Source: an uncultured Gammaproteobacteria bacterium
GTDB taxonomy: Bacteria; Patescibacteriota; Patescibacteriia; 2-01-FULL-39-33
DNA: 64,000 bases
Direction of reading: 5' to 3'
NCBI GenBank assembly: GCA_964558935.1
Contig: CAZLFP010000002.1
Location: 16,356 to 80,355 of the forward strand
The position numbers and the translations under genes were made by a program. Each line of letters starts with the position of its first letter. Position 1 is the first letter of the stretch. Of the stretch, positions 2,944 through 55,366 are shown in pieces. Under the pieces are notes generated by a model. That model was not told the DNA's origin, ran no database searches, and worked only from the letters and a program-made list of their open reading frames with translations.

Positions 2944-3510
2944 TTATTGAACAAAAGCTCGTTCGTTGTTTTGTCCAATGGTAATGCCAGCACGCAATCC
3001 CAGTTGAATCGCTTTGCTCAGTAGATACTGACCTTCTTCCGATTGCAGAAAGTCCCGCATTCCCTCCAGCTTGGAACCCGAGATGCCCATTACCAGAAAG
3101 TCGACCACTTGAGTCTCTGGGATCTGTGAGAATTCCTTTTCATACTCAGCTTGAGCTTTCTGGGCTGCTGCTAGCGAGGTATGCTGTGCGACTCGAGCCC
3201 AGTAAAAGGGTTTTGAACAGATCACTTCGAATGTCAGCTTCAATTCAGTCTTTGACTGATCCGTCTCTGACTGATCCGTTAGCACACGGACATCGTGAGC
3301 ATGACAGCGCAACGGGCCAATATGGAATGTGACCAAGATACCAGCCTGAATGGCTTCTAACGGTTGGTCATCTGCATAGCTCGCGACTGAAAAAATACGG
3401 TCTTTGAGTTCATCAGGCGAGATAACTTTCACTCGCCAAGCCTGTTGTTTAGACTGGGTGGGGTCTGTCTCCAAAACCACTCCGGTTAGCATTGGTTCTG
3501 TGTTGCTCAA
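2944..3510 (-). CDS. Hypothetical protein encoded in a GC-rich segment
   Basis: 188-aa ORF. The local GC is clearly above the window background. No recognisable family. Confidence 0.4.
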   Translation of the reverse strand: MSNTEPMLTGVVLETDPTQSKQQAWRVKVISPDELKDRIFSVASYADDQPLEAIQAGILVTFHIGPLRCHAHDVRVLTDQSETDQSKTELKLTFEVICSKPFYWARVAQHTSLAAAQKAQAEYEKEFSQIPETQVVDFLVMGISGSKLEGMRDFLQSEEGQYLLSKAIQLGLRAGITIGQNNERAFVQ

Positions 3511-3589
3511 GATCGCGCCTCCTTTTGGTTTGAAACTAAACTGGACGATCTAACTGTATTATATCTCAGACTGATCGTCAAGAGTCTAT

Positions 3590-3720
3590 TTTATAATCAA
3601 CGATTAATCCACAGCCATATTTATTTAAATTTAGATAAATATATGCTTTGTACACATAATTTGTTCACAAGTGGTGGATAAGTCTGTAGATATCCACAGA
3701 ATCAGATGTGTATAAGTTGG
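3590..3720. promoter_or_regulatory. Cluster of DnaA-box-like 9-mers (four 8/9 matches to TTATCCACA on both strands) next to an AT-rich stretch
   Basis: Near-consensus boxes: TAATCCACA (3605-3613), GTGGATAAG on the opposite strand (3672-3680), ATATCCACA (3691-3699) and TGTGTATAA on the opposite strand (3707-3715). The AT-rich tract 3620-3650 lies alongside. Confidence 0.35.
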
Positions 3721-3763
3721 TGAGAGTGATTTTAATTAGCTAAATTTAGCTATATAATAGTCT

Positions 3764-3792
3764 TGACCCGGTTAAAAAAATATGCTATAATG
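3764..3792 (+). promoter_or_regulatory. Consensus sigma70-type promoter: TTGACC, 17-nt spacer, TATAAT
   Basis: Sequence ttgacc cggttaaaaaaatatgc tataat read directly. No ORF follows for about 400 nt. Confidence 0.6.
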
Positions 3793-3798
3793 ACTACA

Positions 3799-4160
3799 GT
3801 TAGTTGAAATTGTACCTTAGTAATTAATATTTGGAGAAAATTGCGATTAAACCGCGTATTAATCTCAGTTTTCTGTTTTCTACTAGGTTAACACGAAATC
3901 CGGAGGGACCGTGAGCTAACCTCCCAACCCATGCAACTGGTGCGGTCATAGGCTGACCCCAACAGAGAGAGGTACTCCTGTGGCCACAACCAAGGTAGAA
4001 AACTGGCTTCAGCTCAAGAAGCGCTTATACACCCCCTACGATAGTCATTTCTGCCGCTGATCCTCGTGGATTAGTCCAGAACAGTCCTAGGGCCGTAGGC
4101 GCAAGCACCCATACATTAATTATACATATAATAGGGGCGCAGCTTGCGCCTCTTTTTTTT
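3799..4160 (+). ncRNA. Candidate structured non-coding RNA or long leader of about 360 nt; identity unresolved
   Basis: No protein ORF on the + strand between the promoter and the terminator. The GC-rich core 3895-4130 contains a local hairpin (GGAGGG...CCTCCC). It ends with a GC stem plus a T8 run. I could not find tmRNA (tRNA-like end), SRP RNA or RNase P RNA (P4/CR-IV) hallmark motifs. Confidence 0.4.
4134..4160 (+). terminator. Rho-independent terminator
   Basis: GGGGCGCAGCTTGCGCCTC stem-loop followed by TTTTTTTT. Confidence 0.7.
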
Positions 4161-4207
4161 GTTAAATATTTGGTATAATACAATAACTTACTCATAGCAA
4201 TATTCGT

Positions 4208-4555
4208 ATGGATCAAACCACTCTTCAAGAACTCAAACAAATGCTGGAACAGAGAAAGCAAGAATTAATTAAACAGTTGGAAACGGTTGGTCATAAGGCA
4301 GAGGGAGAAGATAACTATGATGCCAATTTTCCTCAATATGGGGATTCAGCTGAAGACAATGCCATTGAAGTGGCGGATTATGCCACTAATTTGTCTTTGG
4401 AAAGAGAATTGGAACCGGAATTGAAAGATATTGACAAAGCTTTGGAAAGGATTAAAGAAGGCACCTATGGTAAATGCGAGAAGTGTGGCCAGGATATTGA
4501 TTTGGCCAGACTAAAAGTTATGCCATCTGCAACTGAATGTGTTAAGTGTAAATAA
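4208..4555 (+). CDS. DksA/TraR-family C4 zinc-finger protein
   Basis: C-terminal CEKCG-x17-CVKC motif. Size 115 aa. An extended -10 (TGGTATAAT at 4171-4179) lies upstream. Confidence 0.7.
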   Translation: MDQTTLQELKQMLEQRKQELIKQLETVGHKAEGEDNYDANFPQYGDSAEDNAIEVADYATNLSLERELEPELKDIDKALERIKEGTYGKCEKCGQDIDLARLKVMPSATECVKCK

Positions 4556-5008
4556 ATGAAGTTGGCAGTCAAAGTGTTGATAATTAATCTGGCTGTGTTT
4601 AGCTTGTATTTAGTTGATAGGGTTTTAAAATATATATTCTCTACCCACGGTGGAGAATATTTTATTTTAGGCAATTGGTTAAAACTACAATTAGCCTATA
4701 ATCCGGGAATTGCGTTTGGGTTGCCGCTGAATTATCTGCTGATTCTGTGTCTGTACTGTTTCATCTTATTTTTCTTAATCAGCCACTTGGTCAGTTGCTA
4801 TCTGCACAAGAAGCTGCTTAAAATACTCAGCTTGTCTCTTATTCTAGTCGGTGCTTTTTCCAATTTGTTGGACAGATTATATGTGGGGCGAGTGATAGAC
4901 TATATAGATGTGAAGTATTACAGTATTTTTAACTTGGCGGATGCCCTGATAGTAACGGGTGTGGTGATTCTGATTTGGTTGGTTTTTAAAGAGAGAGATC
5001 AAGTTTAG
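4556..5008 (+). CDS. lspA: Lipoprotein signal peptidase II
   Basis: Four TM segments. Conserved FNLADALIV motif. 150 aa. Confidence 0.85.
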   Translation: MKLAVKVLIINLAVFSLYLVDRVLKYIFSTHGGEYFILGNWLKLQLAYNPGIAFGLPLNYLLILCLYCFILFFLISHLVSCYLHKKLLKILSLSLILVGAFSNLLDRLYVGRVIDYIDVKYYSIFNLADALIVTGVVILIWLVFKERDQV

Positions 5009-28354: not shown

Positions 28355-28429
28355 GGGGGCGTAGCTCAGTTTGGTTAGAGCGCCTGCCTGTCACGCAGGA
28401 GGTCGAGGGTTCAAGTCCCTTCGTCCCCG
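28355..28429 (+). tRNA. tRNA-Asp (GUC)
   Basis: Cloverleaf read by hand. Acceptor GGGGGCG/CGTCCCC. Anticodon loop CTGTCAC. T-arm GGTTCAAGTCC. CCA not encoded. Confidence 0.88.
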
Positions 28430-30025: not shown

Positions 30026-30274
30026 TCTTTCTTCCTCCTCATTTTTCCCGGCAAGACTATCTTGCCAGGATTTTGTGGTTGTCAGTGAACATCAGCAAAC
30101 ACCATGTTTACCGAATATATTAGTGTATCATAAATATTCAAAAATGTCAATGTTTTGAAACAAAATTTGTTTAAATTTAGATAAATTATCTTTAACTCGA
30201 GAAGATTAATATTCTTCCTCTCTCTTTTGATATAAATATGGTATAATATATGCAAGAAAATATCTTTAATTAAT

Positions 30275-33200
30275 ATGGCTACTAAGCAAAAGTCAGAAAC
30301 CCCTGCTGCACAAGAACAGTTGTCAGCTCAAGAGGGAGGCGATTTATCTCAGATGAGATCAAGCACTCTTGGCATGTTGCAAGAAACGATAGCTGAAGCA
30401 GATCCCACCCATCAACATTTTGAGGATTTTACTGAAACTGATCTAGCTGGATTAGATGAGGATCAGTTAAGTGAGTTACAAGTATACTTTGAGGTGTTAC
30501 AAGATAAATTCAGCTCGGAAAACATAGATGAGCAACAGACTGAGTATATTGAACAGATTGTGGCGGCTCTGGCACAATTCTTACCTGAAAAACTGGTGCG
30601 AGAAAAGTGTCTGGATTATCGGGAAGTGGAAGAACCATCGGGTGAGGTTGAGTCTTCATCTGTGACAACTGCAGAACAACGGGAGCAAAAGACTCAACAG
30701 GCAGTTGAGTATTTTAAGTATTTATTTGATCAGGCGGTGCGAGATCATGACCTGACTACCGTTGAAGCCATTAAAGATTTCAATGCCGGTGATGGTACAC
30801 AGGAGGTGGGCGTGGATCTGATTTACAAACGAGTGTATGAAGAATACAAGCGAGCGGAGATGGATGACCAGAGTTTTGATGAACAAACCGAAACATATTT
30901 AATTAATCATATGAGAAGACTAATTGACCGCAGACCAGATCGTCAGCCAACAAAGCCAGAAACCGTAGAAGACAAAACACAAGAGCTGACTGATGCCCTG
31001 ATCACAGAATTTGAGCGTGAGGTCGAGCAATATAATTTGATGGAATATTCCAATCTGAAACAGTACATACAAAATAGAGAAGTTGCTTCTTTGACCAAGA
31101 GAATCTTAGAACAGCATGCTGATTGGCAGTTTAATAAAAACCAAGCTATAGATGATTTCCAAGAATATGTTGCAAGGTTTGTCAGCGAAATTAAAGATGG
31201 TCGTGAACAGGTAACAACAGCTGAAAATTCAGCTGAACAAGAGCAGAATGAAGTTGCAGAAGCAGTCGCTTACTTTCAAGAATTATTGGACTATTATGTA
31301 GAAAACAAAGTTTCCAACAAAATAGAATTTAATAGTTCAGTTATGCTTGGCTTAAGAGACAAGCTTAAAGATGATGTTTTGCATCGGTATGATTTAAAAG
31401 GTCAGGCTTTGGATGATTTTGATCAGCAAGTGCAAGCATATTACAAACAAGTTTTTGAGGCTTTACCTGATGAAGAAACAGATTCAGGATCTACTAAAGT
31501 TAATCCATTTAGAGATAAATTGAAAAGAATAAAAGAGCAAGAACAAAAACCACCGGCGGCAACTCCTGAACAAACACCACCGGCGGCAACTCCTGAAGCT
31601 CCAGATGAAACAAGTGTGAGTCCTCAAGAACAGCAGCCTCAAGAGCCAGAACCAGTTAAGGTTAAAGTTACAGATCGTAGAGCTGGTAATGTAGAAAGGC
31701 AAACAATAGTAAAGGAAGCTAACCAGCGTGAAATAAAAGAAACACAACCTGAAGAGCAAGATGATTTTTATCCTGCGGAAGCTGAAGCTCACGGTTGGGA
31801 ACCAGATGGTGAGCAACCCAAATCAATTACTCCAGAAGAAAGCGCTAAACCAATTGCCCCAGAAGTAAGCGCTGAGTTAGAAGTCAACCTAGAACAAGCC
31901 AGAATCGCCTATTACCAAGCTAGAATGCAAAACAAAAAACCGGCAGACTTAGAGCCTTTAAGACAAGCCTACGAAGCAGCTTTAAGAGTTAAGATTGAAG
32001 CTCAAGTGGATCGTGGCAATACAGAGTCAGCAATTGCAAATCAAATGTTGGAGGCATATCAACAGGAAGAAAAACAGATTGAAGAGCTATATGGAGAGCA
32101 TACCGGATCTTGGTGGGAAAAGAAACTGGCTTGGATTAATAAGCAGGCTGGTAAACGTATGGCTGTAGGTTTAAGCATGTTGGGTGCAAATACAGCTTTA
32201 TGGGGAGTAACTAAATTGGCGCCTGAGCTGTTATCTGCCGTACCGGTAGTTGGTACAGTAACAACTATTACTCGTATTCCTTTAAGCTTTTTAGGTGGAG
32301 TGGCATTAGCTGAAGGTTTAATGGCTAGATCATATGAAAGAGGTATAACCACAGATGTTTACAATAAGTTAAAGAAAAAACATTCCAAAGGCATTTTGTG
32401 GTGGCGGAAAACAGATCATGATGCGATAAAACAAGAAATTCCTGATGCTATCGGGAACATTGAGTTACCTGAATTGCAGAAGGAACTGTCTAAATTAAGA
32501 GTGATTGCCGAGCGCAAAGGCGGTAGACGGCAAGAGGTGTTTGGAGCGGGCTATTCGGATGTCGCTGAAGCTATCTACCAGAAAGCTATTGTGGAAATGG
32601 CAGCTCGTTTTACCAGGATGGAACAAGAGCAGCGCGATGATTCTCAAGAGGATGAACAGGTTAAGGCTCAGTTGCTAAACAGCATGTTAGACGACTACCT
32701 GGGTGATGTACATCTGGCAGAAGAAGCCGAGGGTCGCAAAGATAAAGCGGTTGCAAAAAGACGTATGGCCATCTCCCTAGCGGCTGGTACAGCTTTAGCC
32801 GCCTTTCCGGCTAATCGTTTAATTACCGGTTGGGGCGGAGCAGAAATCGCTGACGCCAGCGGTGTGGATTCTGAATTAATGGCTTATAATACTCCACCGG
32901 CAGTTGACACTCCGTCCGAATTAGACATGGCCCCAGATCAGACAGGTGTGGAAGCTTCTGTCGGGCCCAGAGATCTTGTATTACCAGCTGAACCGGATTT
33001 AACACTGGCTCAAGAGTTTGGTCAATCCCATGCTTTACTTGAAGCAACCGGAGCAGAAATTCAGGTTGAAGCGGGTGGCCCTATCCAAGTTACTTACGAG
33101 ATTGGAGCCGGCAAAGACTTTGCGCACTTAGACCAAGCCTTAAGAAGATTGGTCGTTCAAGAGTTCAATGTCGGACAGGATAATACTTTCAGTGCTCTTG

Positions 33201-34687
33201 AAGCCGGACAGGCTGAAAACGTTTTAGCTAATTTAAGAACTTTGTTGGAAGGTAATCCGGTAGCCGGTTTTAAACCCGAAGATATTAAGGGGGTGGTGAG
33301 TTATGCGGACGGTAAGCTGGTGGTACAGGATTACGAGCAATTTGAAGGCTTGTATGGTAAGTTGTTAGGCCATGCGCAAGAAATCATCACTGAAGAGTCA
33401 GGAGCTTTGGATCATATAAATGCTACCTCAGTTAAAAACTGGGAAAAGATGTTTGCTCTCAAAGATTCGGTCAACACTGCTGATGTAGATTTTAATAGCT
33501 TTGTGTCTGACGCTGGCCCAACCCAGCCCGGCATGTCCATGCCTCAGCCAGTAGATGGTGCTGCGCCTGAGCCAACTCCCTTGGCGATGAGTGAAGCAGC
33601 TGCTGTGCCAGAAGTAGGAGTCGAGGTGGAAATACCGACAGCTGAAACACCATCACCGGTAGAGGTTCAAATTGAACCAGACAGCATGTCTGAAACCGTG
33701 CCGGTTGAAACAAGTGGTTCACTTGACAGTTTGTATGCACCATCTGCGGAAGTACCTGCTGAATCAGTCGGGGAGGCTGCAGTTCTATCTGCAGAAAACA
33801 TGGATCACATAACTAGCGAGATGTTGGCTGACATGCAGACACCACAGAACGATATAACCCAGATGTTTCTAAACAATGAACTTGAGAAATTAAATGCCCA
33901 GGTTCAGGGTAAACTTCATGTTTTTAAAGAAATAACGGATGGTAAGCTTGCGATTACTTTAAGTATAGGAAATGAGCCGGTTGAAATGATAATCGATGGC
34001 TCATCTGTCGCTGATCTAAATGATCAATTTTCACCTGAGTTACAAAGTCAAGTTGCAACCATTGTTAAGAATATAGTTGAAGTTAAAGAAACCGCTGGAT
34101 TTGACAACGGAGAAGAAGCGTTGAAATTCATGAATTTGATTAGTGCCGTACAAGACACAGATGAAAGTCAGATGGCAGTTTTTTACCAAGGCGTAAAGTG
34201 TGAGCCAGTGGGTATATTAGCCAAGGAATATGTAGGTAGTTGGCTTCAAACAGCTAAGCAGCAAGAGATATTTGAACATTTGTTAGCTACATCTAAAGAA
34301 AATATTGATTACCAACAAATTGCCAATATTATCAAAGTCACAGGTAAAAGTGTTCTACCAGGCGGAGGAGAAGTCTTTTTGATGGAGAGTATAGTAGAGG
34401 GTACTACAGAGTCGTTAGAACCAATTTTGGGAGATTTAGTACATAGCGACACTACCGTACCGGTTGTTGACAATTTGCGTAACGTAACGATTGAAAATCT
34501 GGGTCCGCATAATTTAAAGCTGACTCTAGAGTATGGAATGCGAAGGCCACAAGCGATTATCGAATATATTCAAGGAGATAGATTGGTTAGAGAGCAATTT
34601 GATGTTTCCGGAACGTTTGGTAACAGTTTTGATAATGCTTTAGAATACATGCGAAATTTCGATCCCAAGGTAAGACTTGAATTGTAA
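30275..34687 (+). CDS. Giant (1470-aa) highly acidic hypothetical protein with central TM hairpin
   Basis: Uninterrupted ORF. Glu/Asp/Gln-rich. Tandem repeat PPAATPE(Q/A). Hydrophobic segment around residues 620-680. Extended -10 TGGTATAAT upstream. Confidence 0.7.
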   Translation: MATKQKSETPAAQEQLSAQEGGDLSQMRSSTLGMLQETIAEADPTHQHFEDFTETDLAGLDEDQLSELQVYFEVLQDKFSSENIDEQQTEYIEQIVAALAQFLPEKLVREKCLDYREVEEPSGEVESSSVTTAEQREQKTQQAVEYFKYLFDQAVRDHDLTTVEAIKDFNAGDGTQEVGVDLIYKRVYEEYKRAEMDDQSFDEQTETYLINHMRRLIDRRPDRQPTKPETVEDKTQELTDALITEFEREVEQYNLMEYSNLKQYIQNREVASLTKRILEQHADWQFNKNQAIDDFQEYVARFVSEIKDGREQVTTAENSAEQEQNEVAEAVAYFQELLDYYVENKVSNKIEFNSSVMLGLRDKLKDDVLHRYDLKGQALDDFDQQVQAYYKQVFEALPDEETDSGSTKVNPFRDKLKRIKEQEQKPPAATPEQTPPAATPEAPDETSVSPQEQQPQEPEPVKVKVTDRRAGNVERQTIVKEANQREIKETQPEEQDDFYPAEAEAHGWEPDGEQPKSITPEESAKPIAPEVSAELEVNLEQARIAYYQARMQNKKPADLEPLRQAYEAALRVKIEAQVDRGNTESAIANQMLEAYQQEEKQIEELYGEHTGSWWEKKLAWINKQAGKRMAVGLSMLGANTALWGVTKLAPELLSAVPVVGTVTTITRIPLSFLGGVALAEGLMARSYERGITTDVYNKLKKKHSKGILWWRKTDHDAIKQEIPDAIGNIELPELQKELSKLRVIAERKGGRRQEVFGAGYSDVAEAIYQKAIVEMAARFTRMEQEQRDDSQEDEQVKAQLLNSMLDDYLGDVHLAEEAEGRKDKAVAKRRMAISLAAGTALAAFPANRLITGWGGAEIADASGVDSELMAYNTPPAVDTPSELDMAPDQTGVEASVGPRDLVLPAEPDLTLAQEFGQSHALLEATGAEIQVEAGGPIQVTYEIGAGKDFAHLDQALRRLVVQEFNVGQDNTFSALEAGQAENVLANLRTLLEGNPVAGFKPEDIKGVVSYADGKLVVQDYEQFEGLYGKLLGHAQEIITEESGALDHINATSVKNWEKMFALKDSVNTADVDFNSFVSDAGPTQPGMSMPQPVDGAAPEPTPLAMSEAAAVPEVGVEVEIPTAETPSPVEVQIEPDSMSETVPVETSGSLDSLYAPSAEVPAESVGEAAVLSAENMDHITSEMLADMQTPQNDITQMFLNNELEKLNAQVQGKLHVFKEITDGKLAITLSIGNEPVEMIIDGSSVADLNDQFSPELQSQVATIVKNIVEVKETAGFDNGEEALKFMNLISAVQDTDESQMAVFYQGVKCEPVGILAKEYVGSWLQTAKQQEIFEHLLATSKENIDYQQIANIIKVTGKSVLPGGGEVFLMESIVEGTTESLEPILGDLVHSDTTVPVVDNLRNVTIENLGPHNLKLTLEYGMRRPQAIIEYIQGDRLVREQFDVSGTFGNSFDNALEYMRNFDPKVRLEL

Positions 34688-36209: not shown

Positions 36210-36620
36210 TAGCTGAATTATTAATCGGGTGGAGATGAGGAGTAATGAACTCCTGTCTGGCAATAAGCGAAGTAAATCAGTTGACAAGTTTTTGCTCTTT
36301 GAATGTTTTAAGCTACAACCTAACTAAAGAGCGAGATAGTCATAGCCGAAGTCTGTAAGTTTAAATAACTTACCCAGACTAAGCAAGTTACCGAGCCTAA
36401 GAATATGACACCGCTACCAACCATATAGGCCTAAGCTGGGCGATGGCTGTCAGCTTATTTAAGCAACAGCTGGTGCCAAAGCTAAACCGCTAAAAGCAGT
36501 TTTGACTCTAGCTAATAAGTTTTTTGCACTTATCTGGTGATGGTTTTTGACCTGGTTGCCAACAAACCGGACTTGCTGATTTACCTGTTATTCCCATCGA
36601 ATCATAACATCCCCAAGATA
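36210..36620 (-). promoter_or_regulatory. Long (about 400-nt), moderately GC-rich 5' UTR of the infC-rpmI-rplT operon; candidate L20-leader-type autoregulatory RNA
   Basis: No ORF in the segment. Position equivalent to the L20 leader of Firmicutes. Not verified by motif. Confidence 0.25.
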
Positions 36621-36624
36621 GGAA

Positions 36625-37092
36625 TCAGGATCTTTTTAAAGATCGGTTAATTTCACGCTCAGCCTCTCTTTTCTTGATAGTCTGGCGCTTATCTAGCTTG
36701 GTTTTACCTTTGGCTAGACCAATATCTAATTTAATTAATCCTTTCTTAGTATATACGGAAATTGGTATAATTGTCAAGCCCTTTTGGCTTAATTTACCAA
36801 TTAAAGATTTAATTTCCTTTTTTTTAAGTAAAAGTTTGCGCGGTTTTTCCGGTAGATAGTTTTTTTGCTGGCTTTGAGCCGGTTTGTAAGCAGAAATATG
36901 GCTATTTTTCAGCCAGACCTCACCTTGGCCGTCAATGGTTACATAACTGCCTTTTAAGCTAATTTGACCGTTTTTTACCGCTTTGACTTCCGGCCCGGTC
37001 AAAGCAATGCCGGCTTGGTAGGTCTGGATCAGTTCATAATTGAACAAACCCTGTTTGTTGGTTTGAATTATACCCATAGATAGAATTGACAC
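36625..37092 (-). CDS. smpB: SsrA-binding protein SmpB
   Basis: 155 aa. GIALTGPEVKAV ... and a C-terminal basic tail. Confidence 0.92.
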   Translation of the reverse strand: MSILSMGIIQTNKQGLFNYELIQTYQAGIALTGPEVKAVKNGQISLKGSYVTIDGQGEVWLKNSHISAYKPAQSQQKNYLPEKPRKLLLKKKEIKSLIGKLSQKGLTIIPISVYTKKGLIKLDIGLAKGKTKLDKRQTIKKREAEREINRSLKRS

Positions 37093-45823: not shown

Positions 45824-45905
45824 TGCCGAAGGAGGGAGTCGAACCCTCACACCCGAAGGTACACGATTTTGAGTCGTGCGTGTCTACCAGTTCCACCACT
45901 TCGGC
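45824..45905 (-). tRNA. tRNA-Leu (CAA), long variable arm
   Basis: The reverse complement reads GCCGAAGTGGTGGAACTGGTAGACACGCACGACTCAAAATCGTG ... GGTTCGACTCC ... CTTCGGCA. Anticodon CAA. Confidence 0.85.
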
Positions 45906-45911
45906 TAATGT

Positions 45912-45986
<75 letters not shown>

Positions 45987-45994
45987 CTGTCTTG

Positions 45995-46067
45995 TTGCGG
46001 GGGCCGGACTCGAACCGGCGACCTGCGGGTTATGGGCCCGCCGAGCTGCCAACTGCTCTACCCCGCG
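45995..46067 (-). tRNA. Initiator tRNA-fMet (CAU)
   Basis: The reverse complement reads CGCGGGGTAGAGCAGTTGGCAGCTCGGCGGGCCCATAACCCGCAGGTCGCCGGTTCGAGTCCGGCCCCCGCAA. C1:A72 mismatch. GGG/CCC anticodon stem. Confidence 0.9.
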
Positions 46068-53958: not shown

Positions 53959-54343
53959 TCCTCTTGGCGTTGCCGAAGCTCAGCCTTGCCGGATCTGCGA
54001 TCCTGGCGGCTGTAGTGCTTCTTGCCATGTTTGGAGGACATGGGTCCTCCTACCTGGATCAGGTGAAGTTAAATCAACCCCAGATGGGGATAGGTTAAAA
54101 ATACCCAGTAAATACCAGATTAAAGCGGATATTAATATTTACGGTGAAATAGTCAGAATTGCTTCTTTGGGTAAGAAATTACCGGCGATTCTCATTAAAG
54201 ATAAGGAGATCGCAGAAACATTTAAATCTATTTTTGAACTGGCTTGGGAAGGCGTTAAGAATCAGTCTAAGAAGTAAGTCAGATATAAGAAACTACCTTG
54301 TCAGGTGGTTTTATAATTAAAAAAAGGAACGAGTGGCTCGTTC

Positions 54344-54634
54344 CTAAGATTTGGGTTTGTCTTTAAATTCGGCATCAGAGAATCGGTCATGACAGGATAA
54401 ACAGCGTTTGACGGAAATGTACTTATCCGTCGTGTCTGGAACTTGCAGTTCCAGAATCCTGGCAAATTTTTTTAATCCCTCAGGATCTGTACCTCTGGTT
54501 CTACCGCAGCCGGTACAAAAAATGGCAATACCCTGAGACAGCTCTTCAGCTTCGTTTAGCTTTCTGAGCACCGGTTTATGATTACCGGTCGGTTTACTCT
54601 TGACTGCTTGGCCAAGTAATTCTGCTTTGTTCAT
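54344..54634 (-). CDS. Hypothetical zinc-ribbon protein (C-x2-C ... C-x2-H)
   Basis: IFCTGCG ... CLSCH motifs. 96 aa. The hairpin GGAACGAG-tgg-CTCGTTCC immediately downstream (54322-54342) serves as a terminator. Confidence 0.45.
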   Translation of the reverse strand: MNKAELLGQAVKSKPTGNHKPVLRKLNEAEELSQGIAIFCTGCGRTRGTDPEGLKKFARILELQVPDTTDKYISVKRCLSCHDRFSDAEFKDKPKS

Positions 54635-55294: not shown

Positions 55295-55366
55295 GGGGCT
55301 ATCGTCTAGTGGTTAGGACACCAGGTTTTCATCCTGGTAACCGGGGTTCGATTCCCCGTGGCCCTA
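55295..55366 (+). tRNA. tRNA-Glu (UUC)
   Basis: GGGGCTATCGTCTAGTGGTTAGGACACCAGGTTTTCATCCTGG ... GGTTCGATTCC ... TGGCCCTA. Anticodon TTC. Followed by the terminator ACAACCA aaca TGGTTGT TTTTTTT. Confidence 0.88.

Follow-up and report, generated by a model that had tools for sequence, protein, structure and literature searches.

In the 64-kb stretch of DNA analysed here, which stems from a Buchananbacteria-like Patescibacterium and to which we refer as the window, a pair of dksA-like and lspA genes (4208–5008) is preceded by a predicted non-coding RNA of about 364 nt on the forward strand (3797–4160), whose 5′ end is placed from the position of the −10 element and whose 3′ end corresponds to the U-tract of a terminator. 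The genes rpsO, pnp and a hypothetical gene are transcribed toward this site and dksA and lspA away from it, and searches of the flanking proteins of 439 and 188 residues against Pfam and NCBIfam provided no useful match. The promoter preceding the RNA (3763–3791, + strand) is of the σ70 type with the organization TTGACC-17-TGCTATAAT, contains a TG-extended −10 and matches the consensus in 11 of 12 positions, in agreement with the TTGACC-17-TATAAT promoter proposed in an initial annotation of this DNA. The canonical terminator noted in the same annotation is found at 4133–4160, where the hairpin AGGGGCGCA-GCT-TGCGCCTCT is followed by T8. The stretch after the promoter had also been described as free of open reading frames and as containing a GC-rich structured core. 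Both features are evident, with the longest reading frames inside the RNA encompassing 27 residues on the forward and 41 residues on the reverse strand, a GC content of 50–59% between 3850 and 4150 compared to 26–33% in the flanks, and a minimum-free-energy fold with a z-score of −5.2, which ranges from −4.8 to −7.9 across members of the RNA family. The terminator ends 47 nt ahead of the start codon of the dksA-like gene. The interval contains an extended −10 of the dksA-like and lspA genes (TGGTATAAT, 4171–4179, + strand), with an equivalent element following the RNA terminator in the other loci inspected. The claim that the next gene has its own promoter 12 nt further on thus holds for the extended −10 but not for a good −35, which is absent.

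Distribution of the RNA gene

The described organization is not confined to the window. A module consisting of DnaA boxes, a near-consensus promoter, an RNA of 320–465 nt and a terminator was identified in related contigs, of which at least 24 are distinct, and is located directly 5′ of the dksA-like/lspA pair in nearly all cases. Homologues of the RNA at the same position were detected by nhmmer in 12 loci from genomes and about 10 more from metagenomes. Conservation of the predicted RNA family thus extends over a branch of the ultra-small Patescibacteria that includes Buchananbacteria-like and further members. The terminator is present at all homologous loci and the extended −10 in every RNA-bearing locus examined, either as TGnTATAAT or, in locus L051, as TGCTATATT, while the −35 is TTGAC-like in most of them and degenerate in L011, L012, L037, L043 and L044. 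Since all homologues were retrieved via dksA, the linkage of the RNA to this gene is partly an effect of ascertainment. The RNA adjoins the dksA-like gene even where the upstream synteny is lost. In L051, the two are separated by an entire gene together with a terminator and a promoter-like element. Conversely, no RNA was found within 3 kb of dksA at L008, L036, L039 and L042, where the identity of the DksA protein is similar. Distant variants in L050 and L053 reach E-values of only about 0.06–0.12 with a model of the 3′ domain of the RNA. A match of the same model in the window (54319–54400, − strand) was rejected as an ordinary terminator following a small reading frame, and a scan of viral contigs with the 3′-domain pattern yielded no matches.

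Fold of the RNA

The predicted fold starts with a single-stranded 5′ tail carrying a conserved motif (GUACCUUAG, 3812–3820; family consensus G-Y-W-C-Y-UUU-AA). It is followed by hairpin H1 (GAGAAAAUUGCGAUUAA ... UUAAUCUCAGUUUUCU, 3834–3874), an AU-rich element in which covariation extends over 13 pairs with many compensatory changes. An internal mismatch of H1 is conserved, and the tip is variable, with an expansion by 70–110 nt in L003 and L010. The 5′ strand of H2/H2′ (GUUUUCUACU-AGGUU, 3875–3889) pairs with a 3′ strand (AACC-AA-GGUAGAAAAC, 3988–4003) to form a covarying 15-bp long-range helix, which is paired to 92% with changes on both sides in 10 of 15 pairs. This helix closes a multi-branch domain comprising the hairpins H3–H5 and a conserved purine-rich single-stranded motif (3959–3972; CCAACAGAGAGAGG in the window, family consensus CCCACAAAGAG). 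Three U/C-rich segments, located in the 5′ tail, the H6–H7 linker and the 3′ end, were considered as partners of the latter, none of which proved consistent. Within the domain, H3 (GGAGG-GACCGUGAGCUAA-CCUCC, 3902–3924) exposes a loop with the core UGAGCU (3912–3917), while the variable hairpin H4 (GGUCA-UAGGC-UGACC, 3944–3958) is predicted from reading the sequences. Beyond H2, hairpin H6 (GCUUC-AGCUCAA-GAAGC, 4006–4022) contains the loop core AGCUCA (4011–4016), which is complementary to the loop of H3 and would engage it in a kissing interaction.

The 3′ domain is composed of H7, H8 and H9/H10. Hairpin H7 (4045–4081), which is interrupted by internal loops, accounts for helices 1–3 in the covariation of this domain, and H8 (ACAG...CCGU, 4081–4096), which contains a conserved A·C mismatch, for helix 4. 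A pairing of the base of H1 with the H8 region that would resemble P4 of RNase P RNA was rejected, as covariation supports H8 as a local hairpin. The last helix, H9 (4097–4160), is the long-range stem of the terminator, in which AGGCGCAAG (4097–4105) pairs with CUUGCGCCU (4143–4151) ahead of U8, and which encloses the small hairpin H10 (CCC, 4108–4110, with GGG, 4134–4136). With 90% pairing and changes on both sides in 7 of 8 pairs, the terminator stem is part of the conserved fold, and an alternative local hairpin (4133–4153) is also possible in this genome.

Comparative analysis, which had been suggested as a check in the initial annotation, supports H1, H2/H2′, H3, H9, the 3′ domain and the kissing loop between H3 and H6. 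RNAalifold identifies 42 pairs spanning H1, H2, H3 and H9, 29 of them with compensatory changes. Pairing in H2/H3 amounts to 91%, compared to 80% in shuffled alignments and about 50% with slid partners, and in the 3′ domain, where 33 of 34 pairs show double changes, to 75.5% compared to 66% in shuffles, with none of 500 shuffles equalling the observed value in either case. Since some rows of the MAFFT alignment are displaced by one column at the H6 loops, the kissing loop was left out of the alignment-based counting of pairs and instead assessed loop-to-loop in 18 sequences with curated loops of verified presence and position. In 17 of these, at least five contiguous Watson–Crick pairs are found (5–6 bp), compared to a mean of 2.7 in non-cognate combinations of H3 and H6 loops. 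The contact is realized by eight distinct complementary pairs (UGAGCU/AGCUCA, GGAGC/GCUCC, UGGGC/GCCCA, AGGGC/GCCCU, CAGGC/GCCUG, UCGAAC/GUUCGA, UGAAC/GUUCA and GAAGC/GCUUC). Conserved G·U pairs in H2 identify the forward strand as the transcribed strand.

DnaA boxes and the question of an origin

Upstream of the promoter, the initial annotation had noted four DnaA boxes on both strands within about 110 bp. These are found within 111 bp (3605–3715) when scored as 8/9 matches to TTATCCACA, and the cluster is conserved in related loci. The distal box (TAATCCACA, 3605–3613, + strand) has a position and orientation peculiar to this genome, and a further box (ATATCCACA, 3690–3698, + strand) is likewise specific to it. 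The remaining two, located on the reverse strand and given here as read on the RNA strand, are GGTGGATAA (3673–3681), which at −124 from the RNA start corresponds to a conserved box at −125, and TGTGTATAA (3707–3715), which at −90 corresponds to a conserved box at −91. With 19 matches in the whole window compared to 18.3 expected by chance, the number of boxes is unremarkable, whereas about 0.03 occurrences of four boxes in 111 bp would be expected and no second cluster of this kind is found in the window, so that it is their clustering and not their number that is non-random. In related loci, the density of boxes in the 215 bp 5′ of the promoter is 9.3 per kb compared to 0.26 per kb elsewhere, a 36-fold difference. 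As would be expected for a DnaA-regulated promoter, the boxes occupy conserved positions relative to it, at −136, −125 and −91 from the RNA start and in a single orientation, in most of 22 loci. The window deviates from this pattern by its two extra boxes of opposite orientation and by a −136 position that matches only 7/9. Box clusters are also found 5′ of the divergent RNA variants in L046, L050, L053 and L051, despite their differing upstream synteny.

The boxes are accompanied by two copies of an AT-rich palindromic element. The upstream copy (TTTATTTAAATTTAGATAAAT, 3620–3643, with the core TAAATTTAG at 3626–3634) is found in related loci directly 5′ of the distal pair of boxes, at about −150 to −170. 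The promoter-proximal copy (3735–3760, with CTAAATTTAG at 3740–3749) abuts the −35 on its upstream side and is fixed at −56 in most loci; it could serve as a regulator site or in the manner of an UP element, and we know of no protein that binds the palindrome CTAAATTTAG.

Like an origin of replication, the region combines a cluster of DnaA boxes with AT-rich repeats, and it had been described as oriC-like in the initial annotation. If it were the chromosomal origin, the RNA would be an origin-proximal transcript aiding opening or priming. The grouping of three to four boxes with AT-rich repeats in some 150 bp, the sole such cluster in the window, is consistent with this proposal, as is the strong transcription known beside origins in other bacteria, such as that of mioC and gidA in E. 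coli. Conversely, the switch in GC skew that had been proposed as a check is not observed. The top-strand skew was calculated for the window, L020 and L021 and amounts to about +0.17 in forward-strand genes and about 0 in reverse-strand genes to the left as well as to the right of the site, and the strand-corrected value is about +0.09 on either side, with the left side covering only 3.6–9.5 kb. As the values on both sides are alike, the replication-associated component of the skew keeps its sign. In addition, the genes are co-oriented through the site instead of diverging from it, no DnaA motifs are detected in the 64-kb window, in accordance with the earlier remark that neither dnaA nor dnaN is nearby, and the boxes are unidirectional in the family and phased to the promoter like regulatory sites. 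We thus consider it very unlikely that the site serves as oriC and, given the constant sign of the skew and the single direction of the genes, regard it as a predicted non-origin DnaA-binding locus. As such, it might act as a DnaA-titrating locus or one affecting the nucleotide state of the protein, akin to datA and DARS, with the RNA gene being unrelated and merely syntenic. In datA and DARS, DnaA boxes are combined with sites for the bending protein IHF, and the phased boxes and conserved AT-rich sites, which could be targets of such a protein, would fit this role, as would the location outside of an origin. However, the boxes keep a constant distance from the RNA promoter across a wide divergence, and where synteny changes the cluster stays with the RNA and neither with dksA nor with the upstream genes, which makes this alternative improbable. 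A datA/DARS-type function and the DnaA-controlled RNA gene that we favour are mutually compatible. Together with the DnaA-box clusters and the sda and dnaA promoters of B. subtilis and with datA and DARS of E. coli, the locus shares boxes outside of oriC with conserved spacing (here 11 and 34 bp) and an adjoining promoter and AT-rich elements. It differs from them in that the controlled gene would be a large structured non-coding RNA and that the DnaA sites are predicted from sequence.

Identity and possible role of the RNA

In searches of Rfam 15 at gathering thresholds, covering the window and 19 loci, no family matches the RNA, and searches restricted to the RNA of two divergent members (the window and L005) are likewise negative at E ≤ 10. 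These results agree with the initial annotation, which had found no signature of tmRNA, SRP RNA, RNase P RNA or riboswitches. When three sub-regions were searched at E ≤ 10, the only matches (RmaA, STnc40 and similar families) were terminator-driven chance hits and were rejected. No covariance-model match to OLE, raiA, ROOL, GOLLD or HEARO was obtained in the window and related loci, and the RNA lacks the features that define RNase P RNA, 6S RNA, SRP RNA and tmRNA. The tmRNA gene that was expected to exist somewhere in this genome is located in the window (36227–36614, − strand, 102.6 bits), and the RNA, which does not contain a tRNA-like end, was rejected as a tmRNA. Among the candidates initially proposed, a novel RNA is the appropriate one since no Rfam family matches. 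In the literature, we found no description of such an RNA or of a module of DnaA boxes and a non-coding RNA in Patescibacteria.

A long attenuator leader had also been proposed, in which case the RNA would act in cis as a riboswitch or attenuator controlling dksA and lspA by termination or read-through. The position directly 5′ of these genes in nearly all loci, with a terminator 47 nt ahead of the start codon, would be consistent with such a leader. It is nevertheless unlikely in light of the terminator helix H9 being among the most conserved and covarying elements without a conserved, mutually exclusive antiterminator, the extended −10 following the terminator in the loci inspected, and the gene, terminator and promoter-like element that separate the RNA from dksA in L051. 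Moreover, no cis-regulatory or aptamer family of Rfam matches at E ≤ 10, and with 320–465 nt and ten helices the RNA is far above the size of known leaders except for T-boxes, whose signature is absent. A relation to 6S RNA had also been suggested, and the RNA could be a functional analogue of 6S or Ms1, namely a global RNA-polymerase-binding RNA encoded beside the polymerase-binding factor DksA. Its strong promoter of the type found in stable RNA genes, the persistent adjacency of a dksA-like gene even at lost upstream synteny and the generally poor sequence conservation of 6S RNAs would be compatible with this view. However, RF00013 does not match, the RNA is about twice as long as 6S RNA, and its covariation-backed fold is branched and contains a kissing loop, with unpaired 5′ and 3′ ends instead of an end-closed rod with a central bubble, all of which renders such an analogy highly doubtful. 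Finally, the RNA shares its size class and a strong housekeeping-type promoter with class A RNase P RNAs including those of CPR bacteria, and it could be a strongly diverged member of this family. In 10 of 35 complete CPR genomes, thresholds for RF00010 had to be lowered to 5 bits, placing some of their RNase P RNAs below the Rfam thresholds (Lui et al., 2021, PMC8172020). There are also superficial resemblances to RNase P RNA in the strings ACAGAGAG, as found in J11/12, GUAGAAAAC-UGGCUU and an ACAA-GGGCUUA loop, and a few short strings resemble CR-II and CR-V. Against this relation, neither RF00010 nor RF00011 aligns at E ≤ 10 with the RNA of the window or of L005 when searched by itself, P4 and CR-I (GGAAAGUCC) are missing, and P1 is absent as the ends are unpaired with each other, the 5′ tail being single-stranded and the 3′ end being part of the terminator helix H9. 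The CR-like strings either lack conservation within the family or form strands of covarying helices (H2, the H3 loop and H8), and the CR-IV-like string GUAGAAAACUGGCUU pointed out in the initial annotation turns out to consist of the 3′ strand of H2 and the 5′ strand of H6. In addition, class-A-like RNase P RNAs were found in all genomes studied by Lui et al., including five of the class ABY1 (PMC8172020). We regard this relation as extremely improbable.

We thus consider it probable that the locus encodes an independently transcribed structured RNA of an uncatalogued family, with a promoter that would be controlled by DnaA, at a site that is not an origin. Transcription would start from the near-consensus σ70 promoter with its conserved extended −10 and end at the intrinsic terminator H9. 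The transcript would fold into a 5′ domain, formed by H1 and by H2/H2′ around H3–H5 and tied to H6 by the kissing loop, followed by the 3′ domain. DnaA, probably together with a protein binding the palindrome, may modulate the otherwise very strong promoter, in which case the output of the RNA would follow the status of DnaA and replication. As the promoter is already close to consensus, we lean toward a damping over an activating effect. The RNA itself might be trans-acting and provide a folded scaffold or a component of a ribonucleoprotein, and gene neighbourhood offers a single, weak lead to a partner in the DksA-like RNA-polymerase-binding protein, which as in the case of 6S RNA would suggest a link of a stable, abundant-type RNA to the polymerase. 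A more far-reaching possibility, which we put forward tentatively, is that of a new large structured RNA class across Patescibacteria that is wired to DnaA and, in these genome-reduced and mostly uncultured bacteria, couples the status of replication to global gene expression, either with the DksA-like factor or as ribozyme or RNP scaffold.

The closest parallels are the raiA motif and OLE RNAs, two orphan large structured non-coding RNAs of bacteria neighboured by raiA and oapA, respectively. The RNA described here shares with them a large multi-helix architecture with long-range or pseudoknot contacts, an own promoter and terminator, one persistent protein-coding neighbour and a lineage-restricted distribution. 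It differs in the lack of an Rfam match, its occurrence in the phylum Patescibacteria and the dksA-like/lspA pair as neighbour, and to our knowledge an upstream array of DnaA boxes has not been described for either. Few bacterial RNAs above 300 nt with complex folds are known, and RNase P, tmRNA, OLE, raiA and ROOL/GOLLD have each opened new biology. Current annotation (Rfam 15) overlooks the present family, and oriC predictors based on the counting of DnaA boxes could wrongly call its locus an origin. Patescibacteria account for a large share of bacterial diversity and their tiny genomes retain little that is dispensable, so that a conserved RNA of 360 nt with a consensus promoter is likely important. 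A structured RNA gene under a phased array of DnaA boxes would, if true, constitute a new type of member of the DnaA regulon and offer a concrete, testable entry point to the control of the cell cycle in organisms not yet available in pure culture.

An RNA gene upstream of dksA and lspA

A consensus scan recovered the promoter and terminator that the initial annotation had placed around an ORF-free stretch, with TTGACC-17-TATAAT at 3763-3791 (+), which matches in 11 of 12 positions and carries a TG preceding the -10 element, and a G+C-rich stem-loop of 9 bp plus a T8 tract at 4133-4160 (+), and no plus-strand ORF longer than 27 aa between them in the window. The enclosed RNA (3797-4160, about 364 nt) contains the GC-rich structured core described there, with a G+C content of up to 50-59% compared to 26-33% in the flanks and a predicted fold of -117.9 kcal/mol, with z = -5.2 relative to dinucleotide-shuffled sequences. 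Downstream follow genes of a DksA/TraR-type zinc-finger protein (dksA-like, 4208-4555) and signal peptidase II (lspA, 4556-5008), an order resembling ylyA-lspA of B. subtilis. Upstream are the 3' part of pnp, a gene for a 439-aa protein without domain match and, oppositely oriented, an ORF of 188 aa. The DksA-like protein is closest to the yteA/DksA-like families of NCBIfam, with scores under their cut-offs; it has relatives that are annotated as 'Patescibacteria group bacterium' and its coding loci belong to Candidatus Buchananbacteria and other Patescibacteria/Parcubacteria MAGs.

In nhmmer searches of such loci, using first the window RNA and then a profile as queries, we found a homologous element just 5' of dksA at 12 loci from genomes and about 10 more from metagenomes, whose retrieval via dksA biases the RNA-dksA association, and two additional homologues by contig look-ups. 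The common gene order is rpsO-pnp-hypothetical-(small ORF)-element-dksA-lspA, and RNA lengths range from 322 to 464 nt. An extended -10 element (TGnTATAAT) and a U-tract terminator are found in every homologue and a TTGAC-like -35 element in most, being degenerate in L011, L012, L037, L043 and L044. Three distant loci (L046, L050, L053), with DksA proteins of just 45-47% identity, keep a TTGACA-17-TGnTATAnT promoter, dksA-lspA and a 340-400-nt non-coding stretch with strong fold (z = -5.7 to -7.9), to which a model of the 3' domain matches weakly at the expected position in L053 and L050 (E ~0.06-0.12). In two loci (L021 10927-20381, L022 5032-14486), the comM-like gene (ChlI/Mg_chelatase) following lspA is truncated to 288 aa, compared to 506 aa in L020, and succeeded by HTH, HNH, N6/N4 methylase and large serine recombinase genes, which looks like a mobile element inserted in comM.

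The proposal of a long attenuator leader of dksA-like/lspA was not borne out. In the loci inspected, an extended -10 element is located 3' of the U-tract, and in locus L051 a terminator, then a promoter-like element and an entire gene separate dksA from a divergent but recognisable RNA copy (tail AGCACUUUAAA, CUCUCUUACU ... CCAAAAAGAUGGUAAGAG; 3'-domain model E = 0.0075). The element is thus an RNA gene and not a leader.

Fold and covariation

Of the 42 pairs that RNAalifold predicted from 15 sequences, 29 show compensatory double changes. All pairs together make up an AU-rich long hairpin H1, the long-range H2/H2' (CUGUCUUUUACU-nGAUA with UAUC-n-GGUAGAAGACAG), hairpin H3 and the long-range H9 (AGGCGCAAG with CUUGCGCCU), the latter being the stem of the terminator. 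Conserved U.G pairs in H2 identify the plus strand as the functional one. On anchor segments of 18 sequences, which were cut out by hand and are somewhat biased towards the proposed structure, H2/H2'/H3 are 91% paired, compared to 80% in shuffles (0 of 500 as high) and 47-55% for slid partners. In a MAFFT alignment of this domain at the 3' side from 24 sequences, with our own structure of H7, H8, H9 and H10, 75.5% of cells are paired, compared to 66% in shuffles and 35-46% upon sliding, with both-side changes in 33 of 34 pairs. The comparative check suggested by the initial annotation thus supports the fold by compensatory changes, and the structure of the RNA is under selection.

The H3 loop is complementary to that of H6, the first hairpin 3' of H2, by 5-6 Watson-Crick pairs in 17 of 18 sequences, encompassing eight distinct sequence pairs with all four Watson-Crick combinations at the first position, whereas non-cognate loops average 2.7 pairs and just 6% of shuffled loops get 5. 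This is strong evidence that both loops would form a kissing interaction, either within or between molecules. Formally single-stranded are the conserved 5' tail GYWCYUUUAA and an invariant motif of purines, CCCACAAAGAG, which reads CAACAGAGAG in the window. The latter (3959-3972, CCCACAAAGAG(G); CAACAGAGAGAGG in the window) is complementary to the 5' tail at 3812-3820 (GUACCUU) and elsewhere in the family to CUCUU of the H6-H7 linker or CCUCUUUU of the 3' end (window 4150-4158), and may contribute to a further pseudoknot or to 3'-end protection. Among peripheral variations, the H1 tip carries an insertion of 70-110 nt with own hairpins in L003 2461-2924 and L010 1502-1936, and RNAs of the L005 group start with an extra perfect hairpin (CAGUGAUUAUGAUAAUCACUG). 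In the window genome and several others the 5' strand of H9 is partly duplicated (GGGGCGCAG), permitting a second local terminator hairpin (4133-4153) in competition with the family-wide long-range H9 (4097-4151).

Relation to known RNA families

A scan of the whole window with Rfam 15 at gathering thresholds returned nothing at 3797-4160, and at E<=10 only weak matches carried by the terminator hairpin were obtained for 3500-4300, the RNA alone and the divergent L005 homologue. No Rfam 15 family explains the element, in agreement with the reported lack of tmRNA, SRP RNA and RNase P signatures, and our literature search found no earlier description of this RNA. The scan located a full-length tmRNA (102.6 bits) at 36227-36614 (-), directly adjoining the ORF 36625-37092 (-) previously read as smpB, so that ssrA, correctly predicted to exist somewhere, is found in the window itself. 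Five tRNA genes are located at 28355-28429 (+), 45824-46067 (-) and 55295-55366 (+), three of them tightly clustered in the minus-strand interval.

The RNase P reading required care because RNase P RNAs of CPR bacteria may score under Rfam thresholds (Lui et al. 2021, PMC8172020). No alignment to RF00010 was found even at E<=10. Since the 5' and 3' ends are unpaired there is no P1, neither GGAAAGUCC nor P4 is present, and the CR-IV-like GUAGAAAACUGGCUU noted initially is composed of the 3' strand of H2 and the 5' strand of H6. The string ACAG preceding H8 pairs with CCGU, and ACAA..GGGCUUA corresponds to the kissing loop. The exact match of CAACAGAGAG to J11/12 of E. coli M1 is specific to the window, the family consensus being ACAAAGAG. 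With regard to the suggested 6S-like identity, a rod of the 6S type is likewise excluded by the branched fold and its unpaired ends. We thus rejected RNase P, 6S, SRP and tmRNA identities. The RNA belongs to a conserved, covariation-supported family with its own promoter and terminator that is absent from Rfam 15.

DnaA boxes and proposed role

The DnaA-box cluster described initially consists of four 8/9 matches to TTATCCACA at 3605 (+), 3673 (-), 3690 (+) and 3707 (-). The entire window contains 19 such matches versus 18.3 expected, and since four within 111 bp compare to about 0.03 expected, their clustering is not random. In most loci, boxes reside at -136, -125 and -91 relative to the inferred RNA start, all TGTGGATAA on the RNA strand, with a density of 9.3/kb in the 215 bp 5' of the promoter versus 0.26/kb elsewhere in the loci; the window has two extra boxes in opposite orientation and just a 7/9 match at -136. 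A palindrome CTAAATTTAG is contained in a 20-bp AT-rich element at -56, directly 5' of the -35 element, with a second copy at about -150 to -170, directly 5' of the distal box pair. Two more perfect copies are located in the window, at 113-122 and at 30171-30180, the latter about 95 nt 5' of a 1470-aa ORF (30275-34687). The palindrome may serve more generally as a regulator or UP-type site and not be specific to the RNA promoter. The distant L046, L050 and L053 retain clustered boxes, perfect or near-perfect, beside unrelated upstream genes (encoding a TPP enzyme at one locus, YchF and Bro-N at a second), and the boxes thus travel with the RNA gene. They form a DnaA-box array that is conserved, phased and linked to the RNA promoter.

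The same boxes had been likened to an oriC/DnaA-regulated region. On both sides of the site, plus-strand genes of the window, L020 and L021 have a top-strand GC skew of about +0.1 to +0.2 and minus-strand genes one of about 0, indicating a coding-strand effect on top of a replication-strand effect whose sign is the same to the left and to the right. Moreover, rpsO, pnp and the following gene read towards the site, and DnaA signature motifs are absent from all frames of the 64 kb, in line with the initial observation that no dnaA is nearby. The site therefore does not look like a replication origin, on evidence that is good but not final since the left side covers only 3.6-9.5 kb.

As judged from sequence, DnaA, perhaps together with a palindrome-binding protein, would modulate the RNA promoter. 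For a promoter this close to consensus, which also has an extended -10 and an AT-rich element 5' of it, we lean towards damping over activation. As a partner of the RNA, the DksA-like neighbour is a weak candidate, given the biased retrieval and four dksA loci of similar identity with no RNA within 3 kb. The RNA itself would act in trans as a folded scaffold.
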